Positions 6,621-42,169 of a DNA stretch of 64,000 nt are shown here, in pieces (positions within the stretch are counted from its first letter, which is position 1; each line of letters begins with the position of its first letter). The stretch is from Candidatus Moraniibacteriota bacterium. GTDB lineage: Bacteria > Patescibacteriota > Minisyncoccia > Moranbacterales > UBA1568. The position numbers and the translations under genes are program-made. The stretch lies in the NCBI GenBank assembly GCA_030648835.1, contig JAUSGT010000003.1, positions 65,307 through 129,306 of the forward strand, written 5' to 3'. A model generated the notes under the pieces. The model was not told the origin of the DNA. It made no database searches and saw only the letters and a list, made by a program, of their open reading frames with translations.

Positions 6621-7874
6621 TTGAGTATGAAATTTTTCCGTTTTGTCGCAAGCGTTTTGGTTTTGAGCGGAAGTTTCTTTGTTTTGTCGCTGACCGCTGT
6701 CGCGGTGGGACCAGCCGATACGAATAGCGAGAAAGTGCTGGTTGAGATGTTCGAACGGCAGGACTGCGCTCATTGCCAGGCAGAGAGAGCCTATTTGGAA
6801 GGATTTTCGACGCGCCGCGGCGATGTTGAGGTGCGTTTTATAGATATTGACACTCCTGAAGGAAAGCAGCTTTTTAGCCAATTTACGGAAAAACAGAAGC
6901 TTTCCAAGGCGACTCCCATTACGGTTATCGGCAGCGCGGTGCTTCAGGGCTTTGATTCAGGAGAAACGACGGGCCAGCGTATCGAAAGTTTAATTAACGA
7001 AAATAAAGGGCAGCCGCCGGTTGGCGTGGAGGGGATTTTGGCGGGGAAAGTGGGTGAGATTGAGAAAACGGGTGGAGCGGTCTGCGATAGTACGACGGGC
7101 ATCTGTACTTTGCCGGCGCCGGAACCGGTTTTTGTAAAAATACCGTTTACGGGAAAAACAGTCGATGTGATGCAATATTCTCTGCCGGTGCTGGCGAGCG
7201 TGCTTGGGTTGGTCGATGGGTTCAATCCATGCGCGATGTGGGTCTTGGTGACTTTCCTTATCGTGCTTATACAGATGGGGTCACGCCGGCGGATGTGGGT
7301 AGTGGCTGGGCTCTTCATCATTGCGGAGACTCTGATGTATTATCTGATTCTCAATGTCTGGTTCACGGCTTGGGACTTTGTCGGACTGGATCGTTTTGTT
7401 ACGCCGATCGTGGGAGCAGTGGCTGTCGGAGGGGGGCTGTTTTTTCTTTATGAGTGGTATCATTCCGACGGCACGTGCGAAATTGTTAACCCCGAAGGTC
7501 GGGCGAAAATTTCCAGTCGTATCAAGAGGTTGGCCAGCGAGCCGTTCACGTGGCTGACCGCGGTCGGGGTAATCGCTTTGGCATTTTCGGTGAATGTTAT
7601 CGAATTTGCCTGTTCCATCGGGATCCCGCAGGCTTTTACCAAGATTATCGAGATGAATGATCTGAATTTTTGGCAGACCCAGGGGTATATGTTTGATTAT
7701 ATTTTCTTCTACATGGTAGATGACTTTCTGGTTTTTGGGTTGGCTCTCTGGGGATTTGAAAAGCTTCATCTGACTCAAGTCTATGCCCGCTGGTCCAATC
7801 TCATCGGTGGTATTTTGATGCTCATCTTAGGCTATCTTCTCATTTTTTATCCGGCACTACTCCGGTTTGTGTAG
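6621..7874 (+). CDS. membrane thiol-disulfide oxidoreductase: N-terminal glutaredoxin/thioredoxin-fold CxxC domain fused to a polytopic DsbD/CcdA-like membrane domain (tentative)
   Basis: Signal/TM, then CAHCQ ... TPITVIG (cis-Pro motif); C-terminal half has multiple TM helices with Cys in GFNPCAMW and IEFACSIG. Confidence 0.45.
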   Translation: MSMKFFRFVASVLVLSGSFFVLSLTAVAVGPADTNSEKVLVEMFERQDCAHCQAERAYLEGFSTRRGDVEVRFIDIDTPEGKQLFSQFTEKQKLSKATPITVIGSAVLQGFDSGETTGQRIESLINENKGQPPVGVEGILAGKVGEIEKTGGAVCDSTTGICTLPAPEPVFVKIPFTGKTVDVMQYSLPVLASVLGLVDGFNPCAMWVLVTFLIVLIQMGSRRRMWVVAGLFIIAETLMYYLILNVWFTAWDFVGLDRFVTPIVGAVAVGGGLFFLYEWYHSDGTCEIVNPEGRAKISSRIKRLASEPFTWLTAVGVIALAFSVNVIEFACSIGIPQAFTKIIEMNDLNFWQTQGYMFDYIFFYMVDDFLVFGLALWGFEKLHLTQVYARWSNLIGGILMLILGYLLIFYPALLRFV

Positions 7875-10861: not shown

Positions 10862-10990
10862 TTTATGAGTATAGATTTTTGATTTTAGAATCTGTCGCTA
10901 TTCATGAATCTTAAATCCTCTTTCAAATGTGTTGAAGTTTCTAAAAAGAAAATAATGGTTATTTGCCCGATTTTACCGGCACTGCGCTCG

Positions 10991-11014
10991 GAAACGAAAG
11001 TTTACTTTCGTTTC
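10991..11014. promoter_or_regulatory. 24-bp perfect palindrome (candidate operator) upstream of korAB, embedded in a promoter-like motif shared with the 26436 gene
   Basis: GAAACGAAAGTTTACTTTCGTTTC; flanked by CCCGATTTTAC ... CTCACTTCGTTTGGTAATAAA, which recurs at 26346-26385. Confidence 0.5.
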
Positions 11015-11069
11015 GCTCACTTCGTTTGGTAATAAAGAAAAAAGTGTAAAAATAAATAAGGAGGAGGGT

Positions 11070-12776
11070 ATGAAACGTTTTTCAGGAGATATTTCTCTCG
11101 TTTTGGGAGGGGCGGCCGGTATGGGGGTGCAGACCGTCGAAGCTCTTTTGGTCCAAGTACTCAAGCGCGAAGGCTACCATGTTTTTGCGAGCAAAGAGTA
11201 TATGTCGCGCATCCGCGGCGGGAGTAATTCGACGGAAATCAGGCTCACCGACAAGAAAAGGAGTGCGTTTGTCAAACGCATTGATTTTCTCTTTGCGATG
11301 GACAAAGATGTGATACCACATCTCAAGGGGCGGATCTCGAAAGAGACTATCGTTTTAGGCGAACGGGAGAAAGTGTGTGGGGCAGCCCCGGAGTGTCATG
11401 CCATCGATATCCCTTTTACCCGTTTTGCTAACGAACTCGGCAATCCTCTTTACACGAGTACGGTAGCGGTTGGAGTGGCTCTGGGCATTTTGCGCGCCGA
11501 TGAAGGGGTTTTTGAAAACTACTTACGGGAACATTTTGCTCGCAAAGGTGAGGAAGTGGTAAAGAAAAATATTGAAGCGGCAGAGAAAGGCTATGCGTTC
11601 GGCAAACATATCGCATATCATGAAGGGATTGAAGTTCGTCTTACCAAGAGCAAGGCGGTAGAAAGTGAAATTTTGCTCGATGGGACGGAAGCCCTCGGTC
11701 TCGGTGTGTTGGCGGCAGGTTGCAATTATATTTCTTCCTATCCGATGTCACCGGGGACGGGACTACTCACTTTTTTGGCTGAGCACAGTAAAGATTTTGG
11801 CGTGGTCGTCGATCAGGCGGAAGATGAAATCGCCGCCATCAATCAGGGATTGGGGGCATGGTACGCCGGAGCGCGAGCCATTGTTACCACGTCAGGTGGT
11901 GGCTTCGATCTGATGGTGGAGGGAGTCAGTCTCTCAGGGATTATTGAAACACCCATTGTTGTGCACGTGGGTCAGCGTCCCGGACCGGCGACGGGATTGC
12001 CTACTCGCACCGAACAGGCCGACCTCAATCTGGTTTTGTATGCCGGACACGGAGAATTTCCCCGCGCTATTTTTACTCCAGGTACGGGAGAGGAAGCTTT
12101 TCTCATCGCACAGCAAGCATTCTATATCGCTGACAAGTATCAGGTCCCCGTTTTTATTCTGACGGACCAGTATTTTTTGGATTCGGTCCGGAGTTTCAAA
12201 GAAAATGGTTTGCAGAAAATACAGTCAGAGAATTTCATTATTGAAACCAAAGCAGGTTATAAGCGCTATGCCATCACTGCTGATGGAGTTTCTCCGCGCG
12301 GGGTACCGGGGTATGGCGATGGACTGGTCGGTATCGATAGCGATGAACACGATGAGGACGCCCATATCACGGAGAGTGCAAAGATGCGTGTTCTCATGCA
12401 TGAAAAGCGTTGGCGTAAAATGGAGGGCGTTCGTGATGAGGCGTTTCTTCCGACAGAAATCGGGGATGTAGCGCGCGCGGATATTATTATTGTTTCTTGG
12501 GGATCGAACCGAGGCGTCATAGAAGAGGCTCTCGAGATGGTAAAGCGGGATGATGTGGCTGGACTGCATTTCCATCAAGTCTATCCGTTGCCGAAAAAAG
12601 TGAAAAAACTTCTGATGAAGAAAAAGATTGTTGTTTTGGAAAATAATTTTTCCGGGCAATTCACCAATCTTCTGAAACTCGAATACGGAGTCAAAATTAC
12701 GGATACCATTCTCAAGTATGACGGTGACCCATTTTCGGTAGAGGAAGTGGTTGAAAAACTAAAAGCTATAAGCTAA
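11070..12776 (+). CDS. korA: 2-oxoacid:ferredoxin oxidoreductase subunit alpha (fused gamma-alpha domains), KorA/PorA-like
   Basis: N-terminal gamma-like domain (GGAAGMGVQT) followed by the alpha domain; partner beta-subunit gene immediately downstream. Confidence 0.85.
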   Translation: MKRFSGDISLVLGGAAGMGVQTVEALLVQVLKREGYHVFASKEYMSRIRGGSNSTEIRLTDKKRSAFVKRIDFLFAMDKDVIPHLKGRISKETIVLGEREKVCGAAPECHAIDIPFTRFANELGNPLYTSTVAVGVALGILRADEGVFENYLREHFARKGEEVVKKNIEAAEKGYAFGKHIAYHEGIEVRLTKSKAVESEILLDGTEALGLGVLAAGCNYISSYPMSPGTGLLTFLAEHSKDFGVVVDQAEDEIAAINQGLGAWYAGARAIVTTSGGGFDLMVEGVSLSGIIETPIVVHVGQRPGPATGLPTRTEQADLNLVLYAGHGEFPRAIFTPGTGEEAFLIAQQAFYIADKYQVPVFILTDQYFLDSVRSFKENGLQKIQSENFIIETKAGYKRYAITADGVSPRGVPGYGDGLVGIDSDEHDEDAHITESAKMRVLMHEKRWRKMEGVRDEAFLPTEIGDVARADIIIVSWGSNRGVIEEALEMVKRDDVAGLHFHQVYPLPKKVKKLLMKKKIVVLENNFSGQFTNLLKLEYGVKITDTILKYDGDPFSVEEVVEKLKAIS

Positions 12777-12789
12777 CGGCTAAAAGCTG

Positions 12790-13653
12790 ATGAGTATGAT
12801 TGATAAAAAATTATATGATATGCCGCAGGGGACGGATATGGCTTGGTGTCCGGGGTGTGGTAATTTTCCTATTCTCAATATTGTGAAAATGGCATTTGCA
12901 GAACTCGATATCAAGCCACAGGACGCGGTTATTTGTTCCGGTATCGGTCAGGCCGCCAAGACACCGCACTATTTGCGTGTGAACTACTTCAATGGTCTGC
13001 ATGGCAGGGCATTGCCTCCGGCCATCGCCATCAAAGTAACTAATCCCAAGTTGACGGTCATCGCCGAGAGCGGTGATGGGGATACCTATGGTGAGGGGGG
13101 CAATCATTTCATGCATACCATACGACGTAATCCCGATATCACAAACATCGTGCATGACAATATGATTTATGGTTTGACCAAGGGTCAGGCGTCGCCGACG
13201 TCCGAAAAGGGTATGAAAAATCCCATTCAGAAAGAAGGGGTCATTGTGGAGCAGTTCAACCCGCTGGCGGTGGCGTTGTCACTTGACGCGACATTCGTGG
13301 CGCGGGCCTTTACCGGAGATATTCTTCAGACGAAAGATATCATCAAGGCCGCTATTCTCCATAAGGGCTATGCTCTGGTGGACGTGTTCCAGCCGTGCGT
13401 CGTATACAACAAACAAAATACCTATCAATGGTTTAAGGAAAAAGGCTATTATGTGGATGGGAGCCACGATAAGACAGACAAAATGAAGGCAATGGAATTG
13501 GCGTTTGATCTCGAGCGTTTGGCACTCGGTATCATCTATCAGCGCGAAGGCAAGCCGACATACGAAACGCTGGTACGGGAGGGGAGTGAGCCGCTGTATG
13601 AAAAATCTTTTGATAAGGCAGCGCTCGAAAACCTCATCGATACATATAAGTAA
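12790..13653 (+). CDS. korB: 2-oxoacid:ferredoxin oxidoreductase subunit beta (TPP-binding)
   Basis: CPGCGNF, TPP motif IAESGDGDTYGEGGNH. Confidence 0.9.
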   Translation: MSMIDKKLYDMPQGTDMAWCPGCGNFPILNIVKMAFAELDIKPQDAVICSGIGQAAKTPHYLRVNYFNGLHGRALPPAIAIKVTNPKLTVIAESGDGDTYGEGGNHFMHTIRRNPDITNIVHDNMIYGLTKGQASPTSEKGMKNPIQKEGVIVEQFNPLAVALSLDATFVARAFTGDILQTKDIIKAAILHKGYALVDVFQPCVVYNKQNTYQWFKEKGYYVDGSHDKTDKMKAMELAFDLERLALGIIYQREGKPTYETLVREGSEPLYEKSFDKAALENLIDTYK

Positions 13654-13680
13654 AAACCACTCGGAATGAGTGGTTTTTTT
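13653..13680. terminator. bidirectional Rho-independent terminator between korB and convergent suf operon
   Basis: AAAACCACTCggaatGAGTGGTTTTTTT. Confidence 0.8.
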
Positions 13681-13999
13681 AATCAAGGCCGAGTTGAATC
13701 TTAGCTTCCTCGGTCATTTTGTCGATGGTCCAAGGCGGGTCAAAGGTGAGATCAATTTTTACTTCATTGATTTCCGGAATTTCCATCACGCGATCCTCAA
13801 TTTCTTTCTGAATCTGCGCGAAGAGAGGGCAGCCAATCGTGGTCAAGGTCATCGTGATGACGCACACGCCTTCTTTGTTCGTGACGATTTCGTAGATGAG
13901 CCCCAGGTCCAAGATAGACACGCCCAGCTCAGGGTCGAGGACGAGTTTGAGCTTATCTTTGATTTGCTGTTCTAGATTTCCCCCTATTTTCTTTGGCAT
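13679..13999 (-). CDS. DUF59/MIP18-family Fe-S assembly protein (SufT-like); start taken at internal Met MPKKIGG
   Basis: Conserved VLDPELGVSILDLGLIY...TTIGCP motif of DUF59; terminal gene of the suf cluster. Confidence 0.75.
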   Translation of the reverse strand: MPKKIGGNLEQQIKDKLKLVLDPELGVSILDLGLIYEIVTNKEGVCVITMTLTTIGCPLFAQIQKEIEDRVMEIPEINEVKIDLTFDPPWTIDKMTEEAKIQLGLD

Positions 14000-14096
14000 A
14001 TTTTGGAAAGTATATATAAAAAGTAGCAAGGAGTAGGTAGCAAGAAGTAAGGAAAAACCCAGTCCTTGCTGCATTCTGCTTGCTACTCACTGCTTC

Positions 14097-14369
14097 TTAC
14101 TCGGGGAAGATAACTTTCCCCGTTTCATCTTTGATAATGATGGCGGCTACCGGACAGGCTCGGGCAGCGTTCAAGATCGTCTCTTGGTCGTCCTGGTCGA
14201 CCGTGGCGAGGATGGCGGCTTTGCCATCGTCATTCAAACCAAAGGTATTGGGAGCCATAGCGGTACAGGGTGCGGCGCCAATACAGGCGATGTTATCGAC
14301 TTCTACCGTCCAGCCATTCTTCAGTTTTATCGGGCCATGTGGTTTGGCATCGTCTTTCCATTGGGGCAT
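14097..14369 (-). CDS. single-cluster 4Fe-4S ferredoxin
   Basis: Cys residues in CIGAAPC...ACPVAAI; 90 aa. Confidence 0.7.
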   Translation of the reverse strand: MPQWKDDAKPHGPIKLKNGWTVEVDNIACIGAAPCTAMAPNTFGLNDDGKAAILATVDQDDQETILNAARACPVAAIIIKDETGKVIFPE

Positions 14370-14386
14370 AGAGTTTTTGTTACGAT

Positions 14387-14752
14387 TTACCTTTTATGAC
14401 GTAGAGCGCTCTTAAGTGTTTCAAGCGAGAGAAGACCGCATTTCAGCCGATTGGGAGAAAGCCCCATATTCAAAAGCTCGAGAACATCTTTTGGTTCCAT
14501 GGAGAGCGCTTCTTTGATAGGCTTTTTCTTCACTGCTTCAGTAAGGAGTGAAGCGGAAGCCTGGGAAATAGCGCATCCGGAACCGGAAAACTTTACATCC
14601 TTTATGATATCATTTTTGACGATTATGTCCATTTGCAGGGTGTCTCCGCAGAGCGGGTTGCTCCCCGCGGCACGGTGAGTCGCTTTTTTTAGCGTCCCGT
14701 GGTTACGCGGATTGCGATAGTGGTCGAGGATGAGATCTTGATAGAGAGACAT
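14387..14752 (-). CDS. sufU: Fe-S cluster assembly scaffold SufU/IscU-like (NifU N-terminal domain)
   Basis: NPLCGD, GSGCAIS, and C-terminal Cys motifs. Confidence 0.85.
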   Translation of the reverse strand: MSLYQDLILDHYRNPRNHGTLKKATHRAAGSNPLCGDTLQMDIIVKNDIIKDVKFSGSGCAISQASASLLTEAVKKKPIKEALSMEPKDVLELLNMGLSPNRLKCGLLSLETLKSALRHKR

Positions 14753-14760
14753 AGATGAAA

Positions 14761-14870
14761 TTTCTAATTACCAATATCTAATTTCTAATGAAGTACCTAA
14801 TGTCATAATTTTGAAATTTGTCATTGAGATTTTTGTTAGAAATTAGTAATTAGGTATTAGACATTATCTC
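14761..14870. repeat. AT-rich heptamer-periodic repeat block (NTAATNN units, roughly palindromic overall) between sufS and sufU
   Basis: tttctaattaccaatatctaatttctaatg ... cattagaaattagtaattaggtattagacatt. Confidence 0.8.
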
Positions 14871-16133
14871 GCTTATTTCTTCTAGCCTAGCAACTAATTT
14901 ATCTATATCCTTCTCATCATTATAGATTGAGAGGCTTACCCGTGTCGTGGCGTTGAGATGGAACTTCCGGTGCAGCGGAGCGGCACAGTGTTCACCGGCG
15001 CGGACGCAGATGTTTCGTTCGCCCAAGAGCTGTGCGATATCGTGAGGATGAATGTCCTTGAGCGAGAATGCGACAATTCCTCCGCGCTCACTCGCTTCCC
15101 CCGGACCGATAATCCGAATATGTTTGCCAAAGGTCTCTCGCAAACGTTTCAAGGTATATGCTGTCAAAGCCGTTTCATGGACACGAATATTCTCACGGCC
15201 GATATTTTCGATATATTTTATAGCCGCTCCGAGCGCGATCACGCCTCCGATGTTTTGTGTCCCGGCTTCGAAACAGTATGGGCTTTCTCTATAGAGCGTT
15301 TTTTTTGCACAGGCATCGAGCACCATACCTCCGCCAAATATAACCGGGCGGAGTGTTTCGAGCAGGGTTTTCTTCCCATAGAGAATGCCGACCCCGGTTG
15401 TGCCGAACATCTTGTGAGCGGAGAATGCGACAAAATCCGCATTCCACTTGGAAACGTCCATGGGAGCATGGCCTATGGCTTGAGCGGCATCTATGAGAAT
15501 GATAGTTTTCGGATTGATGCTTTTGATCATGGCTACGATTTCGGAAACCGGACTGATGGTTCCCAGTACGTTTGAAACGGCGGAAAAAGCCACCACCCGG
15601 GTGTGGTCATCGATAGAATTTCGGAGTGCCTCAAGATCAATCAGTCCGTCTTCTGTGATAGGGACAACCCGGAAGGTGGCATCTTTCGCGCGGGCGAGCT
15701 CTTTCCATGGAAGGAAATTGGAATGGTGTTCCAACTCCGTCGTGACGATATTTGCTTTTGTCATCCCGGACTTGATCCGGGATCTAGATTCTGGCTCGTC
15801 GGCCGGAATGGCAGAGAAAAGAGATTTTTCAATGAGTTGAGCAACAAGATTGATGGAAGCGGTCGTCCCGGCGGTAAAAACGATTTCTTGGGGGCCTTTG
15901 GCGCCAATGAAGGCAGAAACTTGTTTGCGGACAGCCTCAAATTTTTCCGTAGCTGTTTCCGCCAGCGGATACAGACCACGTCCGACGTTGGAGGAGTACT
16001 GTTCCAGATATTCTTTTTCGGCATCGATCACCGCTTGTGGTTTGAGGGTTGTTGCGGCCGAGTCCAAGTACACCAGATCCGGATGATGGGTGAAAATAGG
16101 AAAATCAAGTTTTATAATTTTTGAGCTGAGCAT
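14850..16133 (-). CDS. sufS: cysteine desulfurase SufS (class V aminotransferase)
   Basis: PLP-Lys block SAHKMFGTTGVGILYGK, catalytic Cys region RAGEHCAAP; carries an in-frame palindromic insert (EPESRSRIKSGMTK). Confidence 0.9.
   Translation of the reverse strand: MLSSKIIKLDFPIFTHHPDLVYLDSAATTLKPQAVIDAEKEYLEQYSSNVGRGLYPLAETATEKFEAVRKQVSAFIGAKGPQEIVFTAGTTASINLVAQLIEKSLFSAIPADEPESRSRIKSGMTKANIVTTELEHHSNFLPWKELARAKDATFRVVPITEDGLIDLEALRNSIDDHTRVVAFSAVSNVLGTISPVSEIVAMIKSINPKTIILIDAAQAIGHAPMDVSKWNADFVAFSAHKMFGTTGVGILYGKKTLLETLRPVIFGGGMVLDACAKKTLYRESPYCFEAGTQNIGGVIALGAAIKYIENIGRENIRVHETALTAYTLKRLRETFGKHIRIIGPGEASERGGIVAFSLKDIHPHDIAQLLGERNICVRAGEHCAAPLHRKFHLNATTRVSLSIYNDEKDIDKLVARLEEISEIMSNT
15760..15814. 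repeat. palindromic insertion element (RPE-like) in-frame within sufS
   Basis: GTCATCCCGGACTTGATCCGGGATCTAGATTCTGGCTCGTCGGCCGGAATGGCAG; its reverse complement aligns with the mutY copy (CCGGAATCTAGATCCCGG core). Confidence 0.8.
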
Positions 16134-16144
16134 AGTCTTGTAAA

Positions 16145-16178
16145 AATTTCTAATTTCTAATACCTAATTCCTAATATC
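16145..16178. repeat. heptamer repeat array at sufD/sufS junction
   Basis: aatttctaatttctaatacctaattcctaatatc. Confidence 0.75.
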
Positions 16179-16744
16179 TTTTTTATCTCTACTATATCAA
16201 CTCCCAATTTCTCCATCTTCTGAAGAGCATCGTTGAAAAAACCATCAATAAGAAGTTTTGTCGCTTGTGTTTTAGAAAGCCCGCGCGACTCTGCGAAAAA
16301 GAGAGACTCCTGACTTATGGGGCCGGCAGTGGCGGCGTGTCGGCAGCGCACATCATTGGCCAGAATTTCCAGCGTCGGTTTCAGAGAGACTTTGGTATTG
16401 GGGGAGAGAAGAATAGCACGGCTTTCTTGTGAAGCATCGCCTTGTATTGCTTGTTTGTTCATAAAGATAGATCCTTCGTAGGCGACTTCGGATTCATCGG
16501 AGAGAACGCTCTTGATGAGCGCGTGAGAAGTAGTTTTTGGCGCGAGGTGTTTTTGAAAAATTTTGAGCGTTGCCTTGTCGGTATTACGCCCAATAAAGAA
16601 AGAGAAAATATGAGCCTCCGCTCCGTGCCCCGCGAGTTCAATCGTGATAACTCCTGTACGATTGAGCATGAAGAACACACGCTTCTCGTTTGTTTTGAGA
16701 CGATAGAGTGGAGTTGCATCTTGTGAGATATCTTTATATTGCAT
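16157..16744 (-). CDS. sufD: short SufD-like Fe-S assembly protein (SufB/SufD C-terminal beta-helix core only)
   Basis: SufBD-family motifs (HGAEAHIFSF..., CRHAATAGPI...); 195 aa. Confidence 0.75.
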   Translation of the reverse strand: MQYKDISQDATPLYRLKTNEKRVFFMLNRTGVITIELAGHGAEAHIFSFFIGRNTDKATLKIFQKHLAPKTTSHALIKSVLSDESEVAYEGSIFMNKQAIQGDASQESRAILLSPNTKVSLKPTLEILANDVRCRHAATAGPISQESLFFAESRGLSKTQATKLLIDGFFNDALQKMEKLGVDIVEIKKILGIRY

Positions 16745-16749
16745 AAGCT

Positions 16750-18156
16750 TTATCCTACGCTTCCTTCCATTTCCATATTAATGAGTCGATTGAGTTCGAT
16801 GGAATATTCGAGAGGAATCTCTTTGACAATCGGATCGATGAAGCCGTTTACCAGGAGCCCCTCCGCGTCTTCTTTCTTGATACCGCGCGAAGTGAGATAG
16901 AAAAGTTTTTCCGCTCCGATTTTTTCCACTGTGGCCTCATGTTCGACGACAGCGCTCGGTTCCTGGATATTCATCGTGGGGTAGGTATCCGAACGGGAAA
17001 GGTCGTCGAGGAGAAGCGCATCGCAGACAACAGAGGCCTTGGCGTTTTTGGCTCCACGCCCAATGTGAATGAGTCCACGATAGGAAGTGCGTCCGCCGTC
17101 TTTGGAGACGGATTTGGAAATGACACGCGAGGTGGTATCCGGTGCGAGATGCACCATTTTGGCGCCGGCATCCTGGTGTTGCCCTTGACCGGCATAGGCG
17201 ATAGAGAGCACTTCTCCGTGAGCCCCGCGCCCCGTCAAGTAGACCGCCGGGTATTTCATAGTGATGCCGGAACCGATGTTGCAGTCCACCCACTCCATTA
17301 TGGCGTTTTCACCGGCCTGGGCTCTCTTGGTGACAAGGTTATAGATATTCTTGCTCCAGTTTTGAACGGTAGTATAGCGAACGCGGGCGTTTTTTTTCAC
17401 GAATATTTCTACGACAGCGGAATGCAACGAATTGGTGGTATAGATCGGCGCAGTGCAGCCCTCGATGTAGTGGACGTAGCTTCCTTCTTCAGCAATGATG
17501 AGCGTTCGTTCGAACTGACCAAAAGCTTCAGCATTGATGCGGAAATAGGCTTGGAGGGGAAGCTTCACGTGGACACCTTTGGGGATGTAGACGAACGAGC
17601 CGCCGGACCAGACGGCCGAGTTGAGAGCGGCGAATTTGTTATCGTGAGGCGGAATAAGCGTACTCATATATTCTTTGACAAGCACGGGATATTTTTTGAC
17701 AGCCGTGTCCATATCGCAGAAAATGACTCCCAGCTTGTTGAGCTCACGGTTAAAACTTTCGTAGACGACCTCGGACTCATACTGGGCCGAGACCCCGGCC
17801 AGGAATTTTTTTTCCGCTTCCGGTACGCCGATGCGGTCATAGGTTTCTTTAATCTCTTTTGGCAGATCATCCCAAGAGCGAGCCTGCTTGTCGGTAGCTT
17901 TGAGGTAATAGGTGATGGCTTCAAAATCGATTGGGGAAAGATCGGCGCCCCAACTTGGCAGAGGCTTTTTTTTGAATGTCTCATACGCGCGCAGGCGAAA
18001 ATCACGCATCCATTTTTGTTCGTTCTTGATAGTGGAGATCTCGGTTACGATCTTGGCAGTGAGACCGAGACCGGTTCTTCGGACGGAGCGCTCTGGCATG
18101 GCAAATCCATACTTATAATCACCGATGTCAACGGTTTTTTTCTTTACATTTTTCAT
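16750..18156 (-). CDS. sufB: Fe-S cluster assembly protein SufB
   Basis: 468 aa, full-length SufB-like; 4-nt overlap with the sufC stop. Confidence 0.9.
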   Translation of the reverse strand: MKNVKKKTVDIGDYKYGFAMPERSVRRTGLGLTAKIVTEISTIKNEQKWMRDFRLRAYETFKKKPLPSWGADLSPIDFEAITYYLKATDKQARSWDDLPKEIKETYDRIGVPEAEKKFLAGVSAQYESEVVYESFNRELNKLGVIFCDMDTAVKKYPVLVKEYMSTLIPPHDNKFAALNSAVWSGGSFVYIPKGVHVKLPLQAYFRINAEAFGQFERTLIIAEEGSYVHYIEGCTAPIYTTNSLHSAVVEIFVKKNARVRYTTVQNWSKNIYNLVTKRAQAGENAIMEWVDCNIGSGITMKYPAVYLTGRGAHGEVLSIAYAGQGQHQDAGAKMVHLAPDTTSRVISKSVSKDGGRTSYRGLIHIGRGAKNAKASVVCDALLLDDLSRSDTYPTMNIQEPSAVVEHEATVEKIGAEKLFYLTSRGIKKEDAEGLLVNGFIDPIVKEIPLEYSIELNRLINMEMEGSVG

Positions 18157-18869
18157 GAGATTTTTTCAAAGCCTTCTCTCTCGATCTTCTTCGCCAGAGC
18201 GCCCTTGCCTGTTTTGACGAGGCGCCCTACCTTCATAATGAGGACTTCTTGTGGTTTGATATAGCGCAAAAGGCGCGTGGAGTGGGTAATGAACACAAGC
18301 GTGGTTTTTTTGGAGAGGTGTTTTTTTAAAAACCGGGAAATCGTTTTCAGAGCGTCCACATCAACGCCGGTGTCGATTTCATCGAACAGAGCGAACTGTG
18401 GTTTTAGGAGAACTGCCTGGAGAGCCTCAAGCTTTTTCTTTTCTCCACCGGAGAATCCGTCATTCAAGGATCGCTTCAGAAGCTCTTCTTTGATGTGAAG
18501 TTCTTTGGCATAGGCTTTCACTCGGCCGTGAAGTGTCACGGGATCAATCTGTTTTTCCAACGCCAGGCGCAGGAGTTCGAAGACGGTCACACCGGGGAGT
18601 GTCATGGGTGTTTGGAAGGAGAGAAATATTCCAAGCTTGGCGCGTTTATCAGGCGAGAGGTTTTTGATATTCTTACCACTGACGAGAATTTTTGATACGC
18701 GCGAGTACGTGATCTGGGGGTGCCCCATGATGGCGGCTGCCAGGGTGGATTTTCCGGATCCATTCGGACCCATAAGGGCGTAGGTTTTTCCTACGTGAAA
18801 ATCAAATGAGATATTGTCTAGAATTTTCTTGTCTTCGATAGAGACGGAAAGGTTTTTGATGTGTAGCAT
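18153..18869 (-). CDS. sufC: Fe-S cluster assembly ATPase SufC; start at internal Met (MLHIKNL) of the longer track ORF
   Basis: Walker A GPNGSGKST, ABC signature FSGGEKKKLEAL, Walker B ALFDEIDTG. Confidence 0.9.
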   Translation of the reverse strand: MLHIKNLSVSIEDKKILDNISFDFHVGKTYALMGPNGSGKSTLAAAIMGHPQITYSRVSKILVSGKNIKNLSPDKRAKLGIFLSFQTPMTLPGVTVFELLRLALEKQIDPVTLHGRVKAYAKELHIKEELLKRSLNDGFSGGEKKKLEALQAVLLKPQFALFDEIDTGVDVDALKTISRFLKKHLSKKTTLVFITHSTRLLRYIKPQEVLIMKVGRLVKTGKGALAKKIEREGFEKIS

Positions 18870-18879
18870 AGTATGGGCT

Positions 18880-19290
18880 TTAGGAAGTAGTATTCTTTGG
18901 AACCAAACTGCCGAGTGATATATTTGAAAGAGTTTCTTTGACTTTATTTTCCAGGGTGCGCCATACTTCATTGGTTTGGCAATGACTGACCTGGAGGCAG
19001 GGGAGAGCCCCCTTGACGGGTGCGGAGAAAGTTTTGATGGGACCGTCGAGCTCACAGAGGATATCCCAGACGCTGATTTCTTTGGCGGGACGGGCCAGGA
19101 CATATCCACCGGTCATACCTTTATGTGCCATAACCAAGTTGGCTCGGCGTAAGGATTGAAGAATCTTCTCGAGATAATCTTCGGGGATATGTTCTGCGTT
19201 TGCAATAGTATGAGTAGACAGCGGTTTGTCACTCTGTGCGAGAGCGAGCACCGCCCGAAGCCCATAATAAGCCTTTTTTGAGATTTTCAT
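18880..19290 (-). CDS. Rrf2-family transcriptional regulator (IscR/SufR-like), first gene of suf operon
   Basis: N-terminal wHTH YGLRAVLALA...; C-terminal Cys ligands (CELDGP...C..SHC). Confidence 0.8.
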   Translation of the reverse strand: MKISKKAYYGLRAVLALAQSDKPLSTHTIANAEHIPEDYLEKILQSLRRANLVMAHKGMTGGYVLARPAKEISVWDILCELDGPIKTFSAPVKGALPCLQVSHCQTNEVWRTLENKVKETLSNISLGSLVPKNTTS

Positions 19291-19325: not shown

Positions 19326-20408
19326 TTGCTCTCTTTGTCAAATGTCATACGATTTACACCCGGCGTGGTGGTATACTATATGCGCTTTATGAATGATATA
19401 AACAAACCCTTTCTTGGGTTCTGGGAAAAATTGGAGAAGCCATTTTTCGTTCTGGCGCCGCTGGCCAACGTCACGGACGCTGTTTTTCGGCGTGTTATAA
19501 ATAAATATTCCAAGCCGGATGTGATGTGGACAGAGTTTGTTTCGGCGGACGGATTGTGTCACCCGGACGGGAAAACCGCTCTTCTACGAGATCTTTCATA
19601 TACCGAAGGAGAACGGCCGATTGTGGCGCAGCTTTTTACCGCGCATCCAAAAAAAATGTTTGAAGCGGCGAAATTGGTAGCGGAATTGGGTTTCGATGGT
19701 ATCGATATCAATATGGGGTGTCCGGACAAGAACGTGATGAAGCAGGGTGCCGGAGCAAATCTGATGAAAGATCCAAAACTGGCGCAAGAGCTTATCATTG
19801 CTGCGCGCGAGGGTACAATTGCTTGTGGGAGAGAACTCCCTATCTCGGTGAAGACACGTCTCGGTTTCAATGAAGATAATTTGGAAGTTTGGTTGTTAGC
19901 ACTGCTCCAAATGCGACCGGCCGTTATTACGGTACATGCCCGGACGAAGAAAGAAATGTCCAAGGTGCCGGCTCGCTGGGGATCCGTGAAGCGCGCGGTA
20001 GAAATTGCAGCGTGGAGCGGTACGCTCATCATCGGCAATGGCGATGTAAAAGATCTAGAGGACGCGGGGAACAAGATCCGGGAAACCGGAGCCGATGGCG
20101 CAATGCTTGGGCGGGCAATCTTTGGTAACCCGTGGCTATTTGATAGAAATAAAATCGCGGTCACGGTAGAAGAAAAATTGTGTGCAACTGTTTTTCATAC
20201 GCAACTGTTTGAAGAGGTGTGGAAAGATACCAAAAGTTTCGAGCTGATGAAGAAACATTACCAGGCTTACGTCAATCATTTCCCGCAAGCCAAAGAACTG
20301 CGCGCGAAACTGATGGCGTGCCATAGCGCGCAGGATGTAGAAAAAACGATAGAAGAATTTTTGAAAAGCTATCCTGATATTGCAGTTCAGTCTGTAGTAG
20401 TCGCTTGA
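19326..20408 (+). CDS. dus: tRNA-dihydrouridine synthase (true start probably 19380 or 19389)
   Basis: DINMGCP motif, FMN-binding TIM-barrel blocks, C-terminal helical domain. Confidence 0.85.
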   Translation: MLSLSNVIRFTPGVVVYYMRFMNDINKPFLGFWEKLEKPFFVLAPLANVTDAVFRRVINKYSKPDVMWTEFVSADGLCHPDGKTALLRDLSYTEGERPIVAQLFTAHPKKMFEAAKLVAELGFDGIDINMGCPDKNVMKQGAGANLMKDPKLAQELIIAAREGTIACGRELPISVKTRLGFNEDNLEVWLLALLQMRPAVITVHARTKKEMSKVPARWGSVKRAVEIAAWSGTLIIGNGDVKDLEDAGNKIRETGADGAMLGRAIFGNPWLFDRNKIAVTVEEKLCATVFHTQLFEEVWKDTKSFELMKKHYQAYVNHFPQAKELRAKLMACHSAQDVEKTIEEFLKSYPDIAVQSVVVA

Positions 20409-20417
20409 TAAAAAAAT

Positions 20418-20501: not shown

Positions 20502-21647
20502 CTATGCCGCTTCCCGAAGCTCCAAGTACTCCAGACGCTCAACACGCCATGGGAGCGTTTCGCCGGCGCAGAGGGGCACCACGGTATGTTCGCCGAACGC
20601 GTATTCGGCCGGTACGAGGAGCGGCTTGCGTTCGAGCACAATCTTTGCCGTGTTGCGTGGCAGACCGTAGTGATCAGGACCAAAATGGGATGCGAACCCT
20701 TCAAATTTGTCGAGCGCATCGGCGTCTTCAAACACCTTGGTATAAAGCGACAGGGCGAAAGGTGCTGAGAAACACCCAGCACAACCACAAGTATTTTCTT
20801 TGGTATGCCTGGCATGTGGTGCCGAGTCAGTACCGAGAAAGAACTTGGGATTACCTGAGGTGACGGCTTTAACGAGCTCTTCTCGGTCACAGCGTTTCTT
20901 GAGGATAGGCTTGCAATAGAGATGTGGCTGGATAGAATTTCCCAGCATATCGTTGCGGTCATACATGAGATGTTGTGGAGTGAGGGTAGCCGCTACGGTT
21001 GGCGGCGCTTCGAGAACGACGGCCAGAGCATGAGCCGATGTCAGATGCTCAATCACCATTTTGAGTCCGGAAAATTTCCTGAATGCCCATGGGAGTTCTG
21101 TATCCGCAAAACGTTGTTCGCGGTAAAAGACGTCGGTGTTGGGGTCAGCTACCTCTCCATGGATTTCCAATACCAGACCGTGTTTTTCCATGGCCGCAAG
21201 CACGTGTGGTATCTTCGAGAGACTTGTGAGACCGGCTTCGGAGTTGGTGGTCTGCCCTGCCGGGTAATACTTTGCCCCGATGACAAATCCACTTTTAGCC
21301 GCCTCCTCAATTTCCTGAACAGTTGTTGCTTCTGTCAGGTAAAGTGTCATGAGCGGAAAGCGCTCAGCCACATCAAGGGGGGAGCCATGCTCGATGAGCG
21401 ATTTTACGATGCGGAGGCGATACCCGCGTGCTTGTGCCACAGTCGTTACGGCAGGTTTCAAGTTAGGCATGATTATCGCCCGTCCGAAGACCTTGGCCGA
21501 GAGATAAGCTATGTCATGCATAGCTTCGCCATCGCGCAAATGAAGATGCCAATCGTCTGGCTGTGTCAATTCTAACCGTTCAAGTGGCTTCTTGGCGAAG
21601 CCTCTGACGGGTCTATTCGGGTTTAGCGTAGTTACCTGCATTGACAT
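20502..21647 (-). CDS. pyrC: dihydroorotase, type II (E. coli PyrC-like); GC-rich relative to surroundings
   Basis: DDWHLHLRDG near the N-terminus, AIIMPNLKP, FFLGTDSAPH; alignable to E. coli PyrC along its whole length. Confidence 0.85.
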   Translation of the reverse strand: MSMQVTTLNPNRPVRGFAKKPLERLELTQPDDWHLHLRDGEAMHDIAYLSAKVFGRAIIMPNLKPAVTTVAQARGYRLRIVKSLIEHGSPLDVAERFPLMTLYLTEATTVQEIEEAAKSGFVIGAKYYPAGQTTNSEAGLTSLSKIPHVLAAMEKHGLVLEIHGEVADPNTDVFYREQRFADTELPWAFRKFSGLKMVIEHLTSAHALAVVLEAPPTVAATLTPQHLMYDRNDMLGNSIQPHLYCKPILKKRCDREELVKAVTSGNPKFFLGTDSAPHARHTKENTCGCAGCFSAPFALSLYTKVFEDADALDKFEGFASHFGPDHYGLPRNTAKIVLERKPLLVPAEYAFGEHTVVPLCAGETLPWRVERLEYLELREAA

Positions 21648-21693
21648 GAATCTTCTCCTTCAGTATTTGTGGCCGAACTATGGCCTGGGATTT

Positions 21694-22572
21694 TCAGATA
21701 GGATGTTGTTCGATAATGTCCACGAATTGAGCAAGGGCGTCACCGAAAACGCGAGCGTCTTCAGTGAAATACCAGGCGCTGCCGAATTGTACTTCATTAG
21801 CACCAACTTTCATGAATTCCCACATATCGCGGCCGTTTTTAGCGCCACCGACGCCGATGATGTGATGGTCTGGGAGCATTTTACGCAGCTGCACAATTTG
21901 TCCGAGGACAATTGGTTTGAAGCCACTTCCGCCGTAGCCGCCGAGGTGTTCGCCAAAATCAATGGCTGGGCGAAAATCTTCACGGAACATATAGGCGTTG
22001 CCCGCGGTGTTGCAAGCGACGACGGCTATGTCGTAAGGACGGATCGCGTCAGTCACTTCTGTCGGTACAACTGGTAAGTAAGGCGAAAGTTTGAGACGTA
22101 GTTTGCACGCTTTACCGGCGATGCCGACGAATGTGTGGATGGCGCGTTTCAAATCTTCCGGATAGTAGGAAAGCGGGATCTTTTGCGCGTTGCCGACGAA
22201 GACATGATTACAACCGGCATTGAGTTCAGCTATGGGAACACGCAGTTTCACGCATTCTTCCGCCAGTTTTACCATGTCACCAGGATCAATCGGTGGAACG
22301 CTCAGCGCGAGTGTCTTTCCGCAAGCTTCTGCTTGTGCAATCATTTCCGGTAAGTGCTCCCGGTACCACTCGATCCCGCCATTGGGAAGTCCCAATGAAT
22401 TTACGCTGCCATTATCATCTTGGTACTCGTTGTTTCCGGGATTGGTATCACGTTGCTTTACTGACATAGGCCCGACCGTGATGATATCTGCGGCCGATTT
22501 CAGGAGTTTTTCGAAGAGACTCCGCCGATTACATGTGCCAGCGGCGTTGCCGACTTTCGGAATGTCGTTCAT
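21694..22572 (-). CDS. dihydroorotate dehydrogenase family protein (class 1-like, or dihydropyrimidine dehydrogenase PreA-like)
   Basis: N-terminal GNAAG, GLPNGG, catalytic-loop Cys in ELNAGCNHV, C-terminal GVGG...G. Confidence 0.7.
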   Translation of the reverse strand: MNDIPKVGNAAGTCNRRSLFEKLLKSAADIITVGPMSVKQRDTNPGNNEYQDDNGSVNSLGLPNGGIEWYREHLPEMIAQAEACGKTLALSVPPIDPGDMVKLAEECVKLRVPIAELNAGCNHVFVGNAQKIPLSYYPEDLKRAIHTFVGIAGKACKLRLKLSPYLPVVPTEVTDAIRPYDIAVVACNTAGNAYMFREDFRPAIDFGEHLGGYGGSGFKPIVLGQIVQLRKMLPDHHIIGVGGAKNGRDMWEFMKVGANEVQFGSAWYFTEDARVFGDALAQFVDIIEQHPI

Positions 22573-22746: not shown

Positions 22747-24027
22747 ATGTCAAAAGTGAAACTCTGGTATCTCTACGACTTCGCCAATTCATTTGCTTCT
22801 TCGGTGGTGATTTTTTATTTTCCGCTTTTATTATTACGAGGCGGTGCCAGCGATACATGGATCGGATTGGCAACGGCCATATCGACCGTCATTTTACTCA
22901 TATTTTACCCTGGTCTCGGACGTAGAGCAGATGAGAGCCAGAAGAGAAGAATGAAGTATATGATATTTTCGTCCGTTTCTATGTTGCTGGCGTTGTATGC
23001 TATGGGCATCATAACGAATGTTTATGCCGAACACTACACTTTTTTTCTCTTGTTTCTGTTGTGTTTGCTTTACATTGTTTTTCAGGTTTCCTTTCAAGGA
23101 TCGTATGTATTCTATACGGCTTTCATGCAAAACTTTAGAGACACCGGCCATAACAAGGACCGAGTCTCTAGCCTCGGCATGGGACTGGGACAGTTGGGTA
23201 ATGCCGTGAGTATCGGTATTATGGGAGCATTCGTGGTAAACAGTTCGCTTATGCTATTTGGGGTGAATGGCAATAGCTTAGCACTCATTCTTGGGGCGAC
23301 GATATTTATCGTTTTAGCCATCCCCTTTCTCATACAGAAGGTGGGAGACGCGGATGTGAGCAGAGTAAAAGAGGCAGAAAAAAGATTCACGTTCGGTGAA
23401 TTTATTAAGAAAGTTTTTAAAAACAAAAAACTATTTTTCTATTTGCTCGGCTATATGTTCGTGGCGGATTCTATCGCGACGCTTCAGATATATATGACGC
23501 TGTACCTCAAAAATGTTTTTGGTTTCACGGAAAGAATGTCGAGTCTTGGTGGTGTTATCAGTCTCTCGATGCTGTTTGTGACATGTATGCTCGTCGGGGG
23601 CTGGGCGCACAAAATTATTGGCAAGAATAGGATGCTCACTCTCGGTGGTACTGTCTATATTTGTGCCTTTATTCTTTTCGGTTTGGCTCCGAATGTTCCG
23701 TTGTATGGCTATTTGAGCCTTTCCTTCGCCGGTATCGCTTACGGTCTCTTTTTCCCATTGGCTCGCTCGTTGTATTCGGATATCGTACCCAAAGAATCTC
23801 AAGCGGAATATTTTAGCTCGTTTGTTATTTTTGAAAGAGCGGCTACTGTCATCGGCCCTGTTGTCTGGGTCACTGTGTTCGAGCTACTCGGTGCCTATCC
23901 GGTAGAATACCGTTATCGGGCGAATGTGATGGCGCTGGCGTTGACGGCTATGCTGGGGCTGTATTTTATCAAAAAGTCTTTTACAATGAAGAATCAGACA
24001 GAAATTCTTCACATACTGAAAACGTGA
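22747..24027 (+). CDS. MFS transporter (12 TM)
   Basis: Hydropathy; conserved MFS loop GRRADESQKRR between TM2 and TM3. Confidence 0.75.
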   Translation: MSKVKLWYLYDFANSFASSVVIFYFPLLLLRGGASDTWIGLATAISTVILLIFYPGLGRRADESQKRRMKYMIFSSVSMLLALYAMGIITNVYAEHYTFFLLFLLCLLYIVFQVSFQGSYVFYTAFMQNFRDTGHNKDRVSSLGMGLGQLGNAVSIGIMGAFVVNSSLMLFGVNGNSLALILGATIFIVLAIPFLIQKVGDADVSRVKEAEKRFTFGEFIKKVFKNKKLFFYLLGYMFVADSIATLQIYMTLYLKNVFGFTERMSSLGGVISLSMLFVTCMLVGGWAHKIIGKNRMLTLGGTVYICAFILFGLAPNVPLYGYLSLSFAGIAYGLFFPLARSLYSDIVPKESQAEYFSSFVIFERAATVIGPVVWVTVFELLGAYPVEYRYRANVMALALTAMLGLYFIKKSFTMKNQTEILHILKT

Positions 24028-41995: not shown

Positions 41996-42169
41996 GTTGT
42001 GCTCCTTCGTTATCAGGAAAACGCCGTTAAAAAATTGGGAAAAAACCTTTCGTATCATACTCTCATCGCTTATTCTGTCAATTTCATTTCATATATAATT
42101 GAGACAAAAAAAGAACGGCGCCAAGAGTAGCACGCCGCCTTGTTTCGCAAAGCTTTGCGATAAAATTTG

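Follow-up and report, generated by a model that had tools for sequence, protein, structure and literature searches.

Apparent in-place replacement of the dihydroorotase gene in a conserved pyrD-like/pyrC cassette of a Moranbacteria genome

The pyrD-like/pyrC locus

In a 64,000-nt stretch of the Candidatus Moraniibacteriota assembly GCA_030648835.1 (contig JAUSGT010000003.1, positions 65,307 to 129,306; hereafter, the window), two genes follow each other in the same direction on the minus strand: a pyrD-like gene, coding for a homologue of dihydroorotate dehydrogenase (DHODH), and then pyrC, coding for a dihydroorotase (DHOase). Both open reading frames (ORFs) lie where the initial annotation of this DNA had placed them and both gene identities it gave were right (Table 1); they belong to known enzyme families and are already publicly annotated as DHOase and DHODH. 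What we add is the resolution of an apparent in-place displacement of pyrC, the recognition of the pair as a conserved, isolated cassette of Patescibacteria, and a clade of DHODH-like proteins with an atypical active site. No known biology is overturned.

Table 1. Features of the pyrD-like/pyrC locus and other genes mentioned in the text (window coordinates)
Feature	Coordinates	Strand	Remarks
pyrD-like gene, 292 aa	22572-21694	minus	PF01180 DHO_dh, 80 bits
pyrC, 381 aa, type II dihydroorotase	21647-20502	minus	TIGR00856 'pyrC_dimer', 399 bits vs cut-off 293
Intergenic spacer, 46 nt	21648-21693	minus	Ribosome-binding site (RBS) GAAGGAG at 21655-21661; alike in the sister genome
Promoter-like site	22675-22647	minus	TTGACT-17 nt-TATCAT, 10/12 consensus positions; consensus match only
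Intrinsic terminator of the two-gene operon	20449-20410	minus	Hairpin 20449-20420, 10-bp GC-rich stem; U7 20410-20416
Segment without detectable nucleotide homology to the sister genome	20369-21637	minus	blastn; taken as the replaced (xenologous) block
Dus (tRNA-dihydrouridine synthase)	19326-20408	plus	Convergent with pyrC; native flank, 81-83% aa identity to sister
Major facilitator superfamily (MFS)/ATG22-like transporter	22747-24027	plus	Divergent from pyrD-like gene; native flank, 80% aa identity to sister
2-oxoacid:ferredoxin oxidoreductase pair	11070-13653
Suf Fe-S cluster and Rrf2 regulator	13679-19290
SufC ORF as called	18153-19109
Cupredoxin/COX2-like ORF, 144 aa	26436-26870	plus
purA and guaB	40751-43684	minus

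The promoter-like site is found about 75 nt 5′ of the pyrD-like start, between that gene and the divergently oriented MFS gene, and falls in a stretch that is 81.7% identical to the most similar related genome (GCA_030699645, locus L001; hereafter, the sister). Downstream of pyrC, the hairpin with its U-tract (folding energy -19.9 kcal/mol; z -2.7 (-2.66)) bears out the earlier suggestion that the pair has a terminator of its own; a simple pattern scan overlooked this hairpin, which was revealed by folding. The convergent and divergent boundaries that had been described around the pair are there as well, set by Dus and the MFS gene, respectively. The transporter adjoins the pair only in the window genome and the sister; at the more distant loci L005, L007 and L009, the pair occurs without it. 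Pfam scans of 50 of the 59 window ORFs of at least 90 aa (the nine ORFs outside the scans are all shorter than 500 aa) found no pyrB, pyrE, pyrF, carA, carB or pyrK, in agreement with what had been noted for the first three, and the only further nucleotide-metabolism genes among the scanned ORFs are purA and guaB.

pyrC is predicted to encode a canonical type II dihydroorotase

The pyrC product aligns over nearly its whole length with solved DHOases (369 bits with PDB 4lfy; 330 bits with the E. coli enzyme, 1j79). Its earlier description as a full-length type II dihydroorotase stands by its TIGR00856 score; the same description had the protein begin with DDWHLHLRDG, a motif that actually occupies residues 31-40, behind an N-terminal extension of about 18-20 aa. 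Aligned with the E. coli and Burkholderia enzymes, the motifs read DDWH34LH36LR38, MPN62, AKYYPAGQTTNS (the KYYPAGQTTNS motif), IHGE, IEHLT and GTDSAPH. The metal ligands are complete (HxH, carboxylated Lys, His, His, Asp), and the substrate ligands Arg, Asn and His are present together with the flexible TT loop; the roles of these residues are presumably those given in the literature on the E. coli structure. In every residue that can be checked, the protein is predicted to be a canonical DHOase.

A conserved two-gene cassette in Patescibacteria

The same gene order, pyrD-like and then pyrC, is found in at least six other lineages of Patescibacteria (Table 2), and in a Saccharibacteria locus (L021) the pair is present in reversed order. 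At six related loci, no further pyr gene lies within 6-10 kb of the pair. The partner DHOases differ widely in their TIGR00856 scores (L005, 468 bits; L001, 385; L002, 300; L021, 263; L009, 177).

Table 2. The pyrD-like/pyrC cassette at related loci (identity is that of the pyrD-like protein to its window counterpart)
Locus	Lineage	Identity	pyrC position
Window	Moraniibacteriota		Apparently replaced
L001 (sister)		86%	DHOase homologue directly downstream; divergent, catalytically intact
L002-L004, L011	Minisyncoccia	60%	DHOase homologue directly downstream; ligand-less, intact ORF (three assemblies and one read set)
L005, L006	Moraniibacteriota	54%	DHOase homologue directly downstream; intact and typical in L005
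L012		51%	DHOase homologue directly downstream; intact and typical
L007, L008		46%	DHOase homologue directly downstream; intact and typical in L007
L009, L010	Paceibacterota	36%	DHOase homologue directly downstream
L013	Moraniibacteriota (syntenic)		Unrelated 331-aa ORF

In the sister, 20 genes around the pair are syntenic with those of the window, at 48-92% amino acid identity (median about 80%; a single gene falls below 61%), and the pyrD-like genes are 81.7% identical in nucleotide sequence. The recurrence of the cassette together with this syntenic, closely similar pyrD-like gene implies that the pair was not recently imported. The pyrD-like gene appears to be native to the lineage, and the cassette would be old and vertically inherited in a group of Patescibacteria related to Moranbacteria and Paceibacteria.

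Within the cassette, it is the pyrC position that appears to be evolutionarily unstable. At the Minisyncoccia locus L002, the DHOase homologue (355 aa; nt 10930-11997, identical in L003, L004 and L011) is devoid of three His metal ligands, those of HxH included, and of other key residues (DAGLSL, FNATT, APQ), which makes it a candidate pseudoenzyme paired with a DHODH-like protein. L013, where the order is MutY ... AI-2E ... pyrD-like ... Dus, has no adjacent DHOase, and the ORF found in its place (6837-7832) contains hydrophobic stretches. We considered the L013 ORFs 3′ of the pyrD-like gene as degenerate DHOases and rejected them on finding no similarity; one of those tested is likely an antisense artefact of Dus. 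At a further locus (L025:357-2574), a DHOase named P0147 is paired with a different DHO_dh-family protein of 339 aa. This protein shares some 24% identity with P0011, which belongs to the pyrD-like family and is itself 46% identical to the window pyrD-like protein; to the window protein it can be matched over about 60 residues only. DHOase and DHODH partners appear to have been shuffled among Candidate Phyla Radiation (CPR) lineages.

The window pyrC is not related by recent descent to that of the sister

Amongst all syntenic genes, pyrC is the least conserved between window and sister (43% amino acid identity). With blastn at word size 7, the window matches the sister over 22675-21638 (81.7% identity) and 20368-19405 (76.7%), and no homology is detected across the segment between, 21637-20369. 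This segment takes in all of pyrC beyond the third codon, the spacer with the terminator and some 13 codons at the end of Dus. Its 5′ junction is sharp: both genomes have in common the intergenic spacer with its RBS and the 10 nt with which pyrC starts (ATG-xCA-ATG-C), whereupon similarity drops to background, and the window protein has 18 additional residues between its first three codons and the conserved core.

We compared the third bases of codons that specify the same four-fold-degenerate amino acid in both genomes. For pyrC, they are identical in 26 of 91 cases (0.29), the random expectation being 0.26; in eleven flanking genes, the fraction is 0.43-0.63 (pooled, 0.53; Fisher p=7e-6 for pyrC against the pooled flanks). 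By the Nei-Gojobori method, pyrC shows saturation of dS; most flanking genes give values of 0.7-1.8, and one of the eleven is saturated too. Since faster protein evolution cannot erase the synonymous signal, identity at the level of chance indicates that neither pyrC derives from a copy present in the common ancestor of both genomes that the other shares. Neighbour-joining (NJ) distance trees, the only trees made, grouped the two in 0 of 100 and 0 of 200 bootstraps.

It could be argued that both pyrC genes are nevertheless true orthologues, one or both having undergone extreme acceleration or relaxed constraint: they share their position and first three codons, both carry a C-terminal EYxEL(K/R) motif, and the pyrC position is labile in the group (L002, L013). 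We hold this to be very unlikely in view of the four-fold identities, which set pyrC apart from all flanks, and of the catalytic residues, all intact in both proteins, which moreover bear the signatures of two subtypes (see below).

An assembly or binning chimera, in which a fragment of a proteobacterial pyrC was mis-joined into a Moranbacteria contig, is more improbable still. The genome is indeed metagenome-assembled and the nearest pyrC relatives are of proteobacterial type, but an independent Logan assembly of SRR13727527 is 100% identical to the window over 16,813 bp across both junctions, a result that excludes a chimera for practical purposes. Furthermore, the 5′ junction is an in-frame fusion past codon 3, the GC content at third codon positions (GC3) of pyrC is in line with that of the host, and no database sequence is more than 60% identical to the window pyrC.

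The C-terminal motif, [EQ]Y.EL[KR], occurs in the pyrC products of window and sister and in P0147, and in none of the 236 proteins of the two reference sets introduced below. We considered that the window gene might have kept a native 3′ tail and so be mosaic at both ends, and dropped the idea: over the last 12 codons, window and sister are 53% identical in nucleotide sequence with a third-position identity of 0.25, neither of which is elevated. The tail may have arrived with an unsampled CPR-type donor, or it may have been selected, for instance for docking to the DHODH partner.

Taken together, these comparisons suggest that pyrC alone is xenologous in the window and that the pyrD-like gene keeps its vertical history. 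The idea of horizontal gene transfer put forward in the initial annotation is upheld for pyrC by the discordance with the sister, but not for the pair as a whole.

Base composition gives no sign of the replacement

pyrC had been singled out beforehand as a GC-rich outlier, a characterisation that did not survive a gene-by-gene check of GC content and codon usage. Its GC content is 53.0%, as compared to a per-gene mean of 48.3% (sd 2.7; z=1.7; rank 4 of 59), and the pyrD-like gene ranks ninth (z=1.2). The excess in pyrC is confined to codon positions 1 and 2 (GC1 0.62, GC2 0.42) and thus reflects amino acid composition; its GC3 (0.545; z=0.33) hardly departs from the mean of 0.529, and that of the pyrD-like gene is just as ordinary (z=0.07). 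Comparably or more GC-rich are purA (55.0%, the richest of the window), guaB (53.3%), the cupredoxin-like ORF (53.1%; rank 3 of 59) and SufB. The adjacent purA and guaB, for adenylosuccinate synthetase and inosine monophosphate dehydrogenase, serve purine interconversion in a reduced genome; like SufB they are conserved enzymes, and they are GC-rich through their amino acid composition. The GC-rich run that had been quoted for pyrC corresponds, once reverse-complemented, to codons that spell VVPLCAG.

Codon usage in pyrC is typical. In synonymous-codon deviation, pyrC ranks 10th and the pyrD-like gene 8th of 52, which is a strand effect, because minus-strand genes dominate the top of that list. 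The majority of the window genes are on the plus strand and the cumulative GC skew climbs monotonically over the whole 64 kb; the window sits inside one replichore. We have therefore rejected GC content and codon usage as signals of transfer here, these being uninformative per gene for both members of the pair.

A recent acquisition of the whole pair from Proteobacteria, marked by its higher GC, was the initial proposal. The GC ranks of the two genes would suit it, and the pyrC products of the cassette are 50-65% identical to beta- and gammaproteobacterial enzymes, which is high across phyla. This scenario is nonetheless highly improbable: neither gene stands out in GC3 or codon usage, the sister has a syntenic pyrD-like gene whose product is 86% identical to that of the window, the relatives found for this gene are in Patescibacteria and Solirubrobacterales, and a cassette common to many Patescibacteria already contradicts a reading in terms of the pair.

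Direction of the replacement and nature of the donor

Which of the two pyrC genes is the newcomer was approached with two sets of DHOases, their taxonomy being based on few named matches. Set A comprises the 119 best matches to the window pyrC, the named ones being Betaproteobacteria/Burkholderiales and one Levyibacteriota; set B consists of the best matches to the sister pyrC, with Gallionella, Sulfuricella, Nitrosovibrio, Methylotenera and Competibacteraceae among the named. The nearest relatives of the window pyrC are hence of Burkholderiales type and not of the enterobacterial style it had been given.

The sets differ in signature. Set A has T(I/V/L)TPQHL and mostly KENACG, set B mostly TxTAHHL and KEAACG. 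The window pyrC is A-type (TPQHL, KEN), while five other cassette pyrCs are all B-type (TAHHL, KEA/KES). Of the six columns in which the two sets can be told apart at a level of 80% or more, the window has the A-state in four and the B-state in none; the other cassette pyrCs have 0-2 A-states and 4-6 B-states. In NJ bootstraps, the window pyrC joins set A in 59% and the sister pyrC joins P0147 in 100%, and by our own arithmetic on mean distances the four-point condition favours ((window,A),(L001,B)). On these signatures and distances, we conclude with moderate confidence that the replacement took place in the window's lineage rather than in the sister's.

The opposite course, with the window pyrC as the native cassette gene and the replacement in the sister or in both genomes, is rather unlikely. 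It draws on the isolated standing of the sister pyrC, an orphan whose best relative, P0147 (66% identity), has an unrelated DHO_dh partner, suggesting that this pyrC type moves between contexts. Moreover, the window pyrC is 47-51% identical to those of L005, L012 and L007, a level close to that expected under vertical descent given that the pyrD-like proteins are 46-54% identical, and its bootstrap value with set A is low. Against this, the sister gene has TAHHL and KEA and shares four of the six column states with the other cassette pyrCs, the window gene alone being A-type; furthermore, the extra 18-aa stretch comes right after the common first three codons in the window, where it would be expected in a recombinant.

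As to the source, a check of pyrC against its best relatives had been proposed with the expectation that it would nest within Proteobacteria. The nearest relatives are proteobacterial in type, but the window pyrC does not nest amongst them: it is 58% identical to set A, the members of which are 74% identical among themselves. GC3 at the level of the host, in a gene whose flanks keep about 80% nucleotide identity to the sister, and the absence of any match above 60% make it likely that the donor is unsampled and similar in composition. The immediate donor was probably a lineage of host-like composition and not some high-GC proteobacterium. The cassette pyrCs, all of them 50-65% identical to beta- and gammaproteobacterial enzymes, are as close to these as set A is to set B (65%), which suggests an older proteobacterial origin for the DHOase half of the cassette and not for the DHODH half.

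One set-A (Burkholderiales-type) DHOase, P0095, is 58% identical to the window pyrC and comes from a 20-kb contig labelled Candidatus Levyibacteriota. Either CPR bacteria have acquired the subtype in a further instance, or the contig is mis-binned.

The pyrD-like protein

The pyrD-like protein is accepted by no curated NCBIfam DHODH model: its best match, PRK02506 (NF002702), gives 103 bits against a cut-off of 301. When 1.84 billion cluster representatives were searched exhaustively with phmmer, 72 clusters came out at E <1e-30; a word-index search of 5.8 billion proteins returned only 25 relatives, of which those named are all Patescibacteria. A profile scan of genome contigs, built on the 12 closest family sequences, adds homologues in Solirubrobacterales. 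Those of Patulibacter (Actinomycetota, cultured) are 34-40% identical and lie within a pyrC(type I)-carA-carB-pyrD-gmk operon; they likewise score below the NCBIfam cut-offs (155-162 bits against 269-301). In a metagenome-assembled Kaiserbacteria genome, the gene next after the homologue codes for a genuine aspartate carbamoyltransferase (TIGR00670, 309 bits against a cut-off of 237).

The protein is a DHODH-family flavin mononucleotide (FMN) TIM-barrel. Its AlphaFold (AF2) model has a pLDDT of 86 and a pTM of 0.87, and the top 50 PDB matches of the model are all class 1A DHODHs, with template modelling (TM) scores of 0.75-0.83. A class 1B enzyme would be accompanied by PyrK (flavin adenine dinucleotide (FAD)/2Fe-2S), which was found neither in the scanned window ORFs nor beside the gene at the related loci. 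Class 2, which is membrane-bound and quinone-dependent, does not fit: the catalytic residue is Cys and not Ser, only eight residues precede the NAAG motif where that class has an N-terminal membrane/quinone-binding extension, and class 2 models score 30 bits or less.

We assessed the active site against 167 relatives. Cys121 (equivalent to L. lactis Cys130), Lys161, Asn58, Asn118 and Asn188 are all kept and essentially invariant in the family, the catalytic Cys in 166 of 167. In L. lactis, Lys43 and Asn132 bind orotate and FMN. At the position of Lys43, the window protein has Val33/Gly34, and 165 of 167 members have Gly. Three residues past the AAG motif, 159 of 167 carry a Lys or Arg, an arrangement which, for Lys, resembles the class 2 layout of the E. 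coli and human enzymes; Asn15 stands there instead in the window protein, as Asn does in the three relatives nearest to it. Finally, the CPN motif is CNH in window and sister, which puts His123 at the position of L. lactis Asn132, an Asn in 163 of 167. The gene is all the same under purifying selection (window against sister: dN 0.08, dS 0.68, dN/dS about 0.12).

Proposed history and function

The reading that we favour, at a probability of roughly 0.6, is that of a native two-gene cassette with predicted functions in steps 3 and 4 of uridine monophosphate (UMP) synthesis, in which pyrC was replaced in the window's lineage. The operon would most likely convert carbamoyl-aspartate to dihydroorotate and this to orotate, the products presumably feeding PyrE and PyrF encoded elsewhere. 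After the split from the sister, pyrC would have been replaced in place from codon 4 onwards by a distant, Burkholderiales-like type II dihydroorotase, the exchanged block possibly extending via the terminator into the 3′ end of Dus; retention of the native RBS and the first three codons would have given rise to the in-frame N-terminal extension. A canonical role of the pyrD-like family is favoured by the Patulibacter pyr operon and the pyrB neighbour in Kaiserbacteria. Our literature search found nothing specific on DHODH or DHOase in CPR/Patescibacteria; CPR bacteria in general are described as being without de novo nucleotide synthesis (PMC8407418), and a near-complete de novo pyrimidine pathway has been reported for one Parcubacterium (PMC5220378).

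Several observations weigh against this proposal. The pyrD-like protein scores far under the NCBIfam cut-offs and is missing the near-invariant Lys/Arg15 and Asn123, such that its activity on dihydroorotate is not assured. A complete pyrimidine pathway in the genome is an assumption, the 64-kb window being what was searchable. The direction of the replacement is based on the six signature columns and a 59% bootstrap in a distance tree, and the sister pyrC is itself a long branch with P0147, whose partner is of a different DHO_dh family, as its best non-self match. The best database match to the window pyrC is only 60% identical, so that no donor can be named, and the EYxEL(K/R) tail common to window, sister and P0147, unaccompanied by extra DNA similarity, is unexplained.

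An alternative for the function, unlikely yet to be taken seriously and in the spirit of the non-canonical role considered in the initial annotation, is that the organism has no pyrB, pyrE and pyrF at all and uses the pair on its own, either to turn host-derived carbamoyl-aspartate or dihydroorotate into orotate, or in reverse, with orotate as electron sink and source of aspartate, as clostridia do when fermenting orotate. The pair of the Moranbacteria clade might in that case be a self-contained dihydroorotate/orotate module, a tentative idea for which the loss of Lys15 and Asn123 would suggest a changed acceptor, altered substrate handling or reverse operation. The isolation of the pair in the window and at the six related loci is in keeping with this, as is the general lack of nucleotide synthesis in CPR; the clade has lost two near-invariant residues and is still under purifying selection. 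The DHOase partner looks exchangeable, being apparently replaced in the window, ligand-less in L002 and missing next to the L013 gene, and a transporter is divergently adjacent. That transporter is, however, no constant neighbour of the pair, the pyrC product is by sequence a canonical DHOase throughout, members of the pyrD-like family stand in the Patulibacter pyr operon and beside pyrB in Kaiserbacteria, and at least one Parcubacterium has the near-complete pathway. These points favour the biosynthetic role proposed above. It should be added that dispersed pyr genes are frequent in bacteria, which speaks against reading much into the isolation of the pair.

Patescibacteria are commonly described as unable to make nucleotides; a conserved yet isolated pyrD-pyrC cassette in several of their lineages, with homologues that belong to genuine pyr operons in other organisms, refines that description and supplies a concrete marker for use when metabolism is reconstructed. 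The locus also suggests that ultra-reduced genomes still exchange genes of core metabolism, here a single metabolic gene in place, and that base composition can overlook a replacement exposed by comparison with a sister genome. Of biochemical interest are a DHODH subfamily outside the curated models and, within it, a clade without two near-invariant active-site residues. If the stand-alone module were true, an episymbiont would be processing host-derived pyrimidine intermediates or using orotate as an electron sink.

Neighbouring genes

A 2-oxoacid:ferredoxin oxidoreductase pair, followed by a complete Suf Fe-S cluster with its Rrf2 regulator, adjoins the pyrD-pyrC pair, and both L001 and L005 show synteny there. 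The SufC ORF as called is overextended (the annotation in L024 gives 238 aa). The cupredoxin-like ORF, between a MutY-like gene and an AI-2E transporter gene, has no counterpart in the otherwise syntenic sister, which makes it a lineage-specific insertion or loss.

Comparison with known systems

The pyrD-like protein is closest, in sequence as in fold, to class 1A DHODHs, i.e., L. lactis PyrDa and the fumarate-dependent trypanosomatid enzymes (TM about 0.82 to both). With these it shares the catalytic Cys in ELNxxC and the equivalents of Lys164, Asn67, Asn127 and Asn193, and it has neither a PyrK partner nor a membrane domain. It differs from them by an identity of only about 25%, a shortened N-terminal hairpin and the lack of Lys43 and Asn132, the alternative Lys of its own family being gone as well (Asn15).

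The pyrC product resembles the homodimeric, E. coli-type type II dihydroorotases (TIGR00856; PDB 1J79, 4LFY) in a full-length match above the curated cut-off and in all ligands. It departs from them in having about 18 additional residues at its N terminus, a C-terminal tail of 11 aa, a 10-aa insertion (…EHGSPLDVAERF…) and a Tyr for the conserved Asp in the DRE motif, and it forms a long, isolated branch at 60% identity or less to anything sampled.

In Clostridium oroticum, orotate is degraded reductively, via dihydroorotate to carbamoyl-aspartate. This is the same enzyme pair, DHODH and DHOase, at work outside biosynthesis, but the C. oroticum system has an NADH-linked, class 1B-type enzyme (with an Fe-S/FAD subunit) and a ureidosuccinase, neither of which was found in the window.

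The history proposed for pyrC corresponds to xenologous gene displacement in situ, a concept of mosaic operons that reportedly goes back to Koonin, Makarova, Aravind and Omelchenko: one gene of an operon is swapped in place and its neighbours are inherited vertically. In the present case, the 5′ junction is resolved to near-codon precision, the genome is that of an ultra-small Patescibacterium, and the same position is degenerate or filled by an unrelated gene in relatives.

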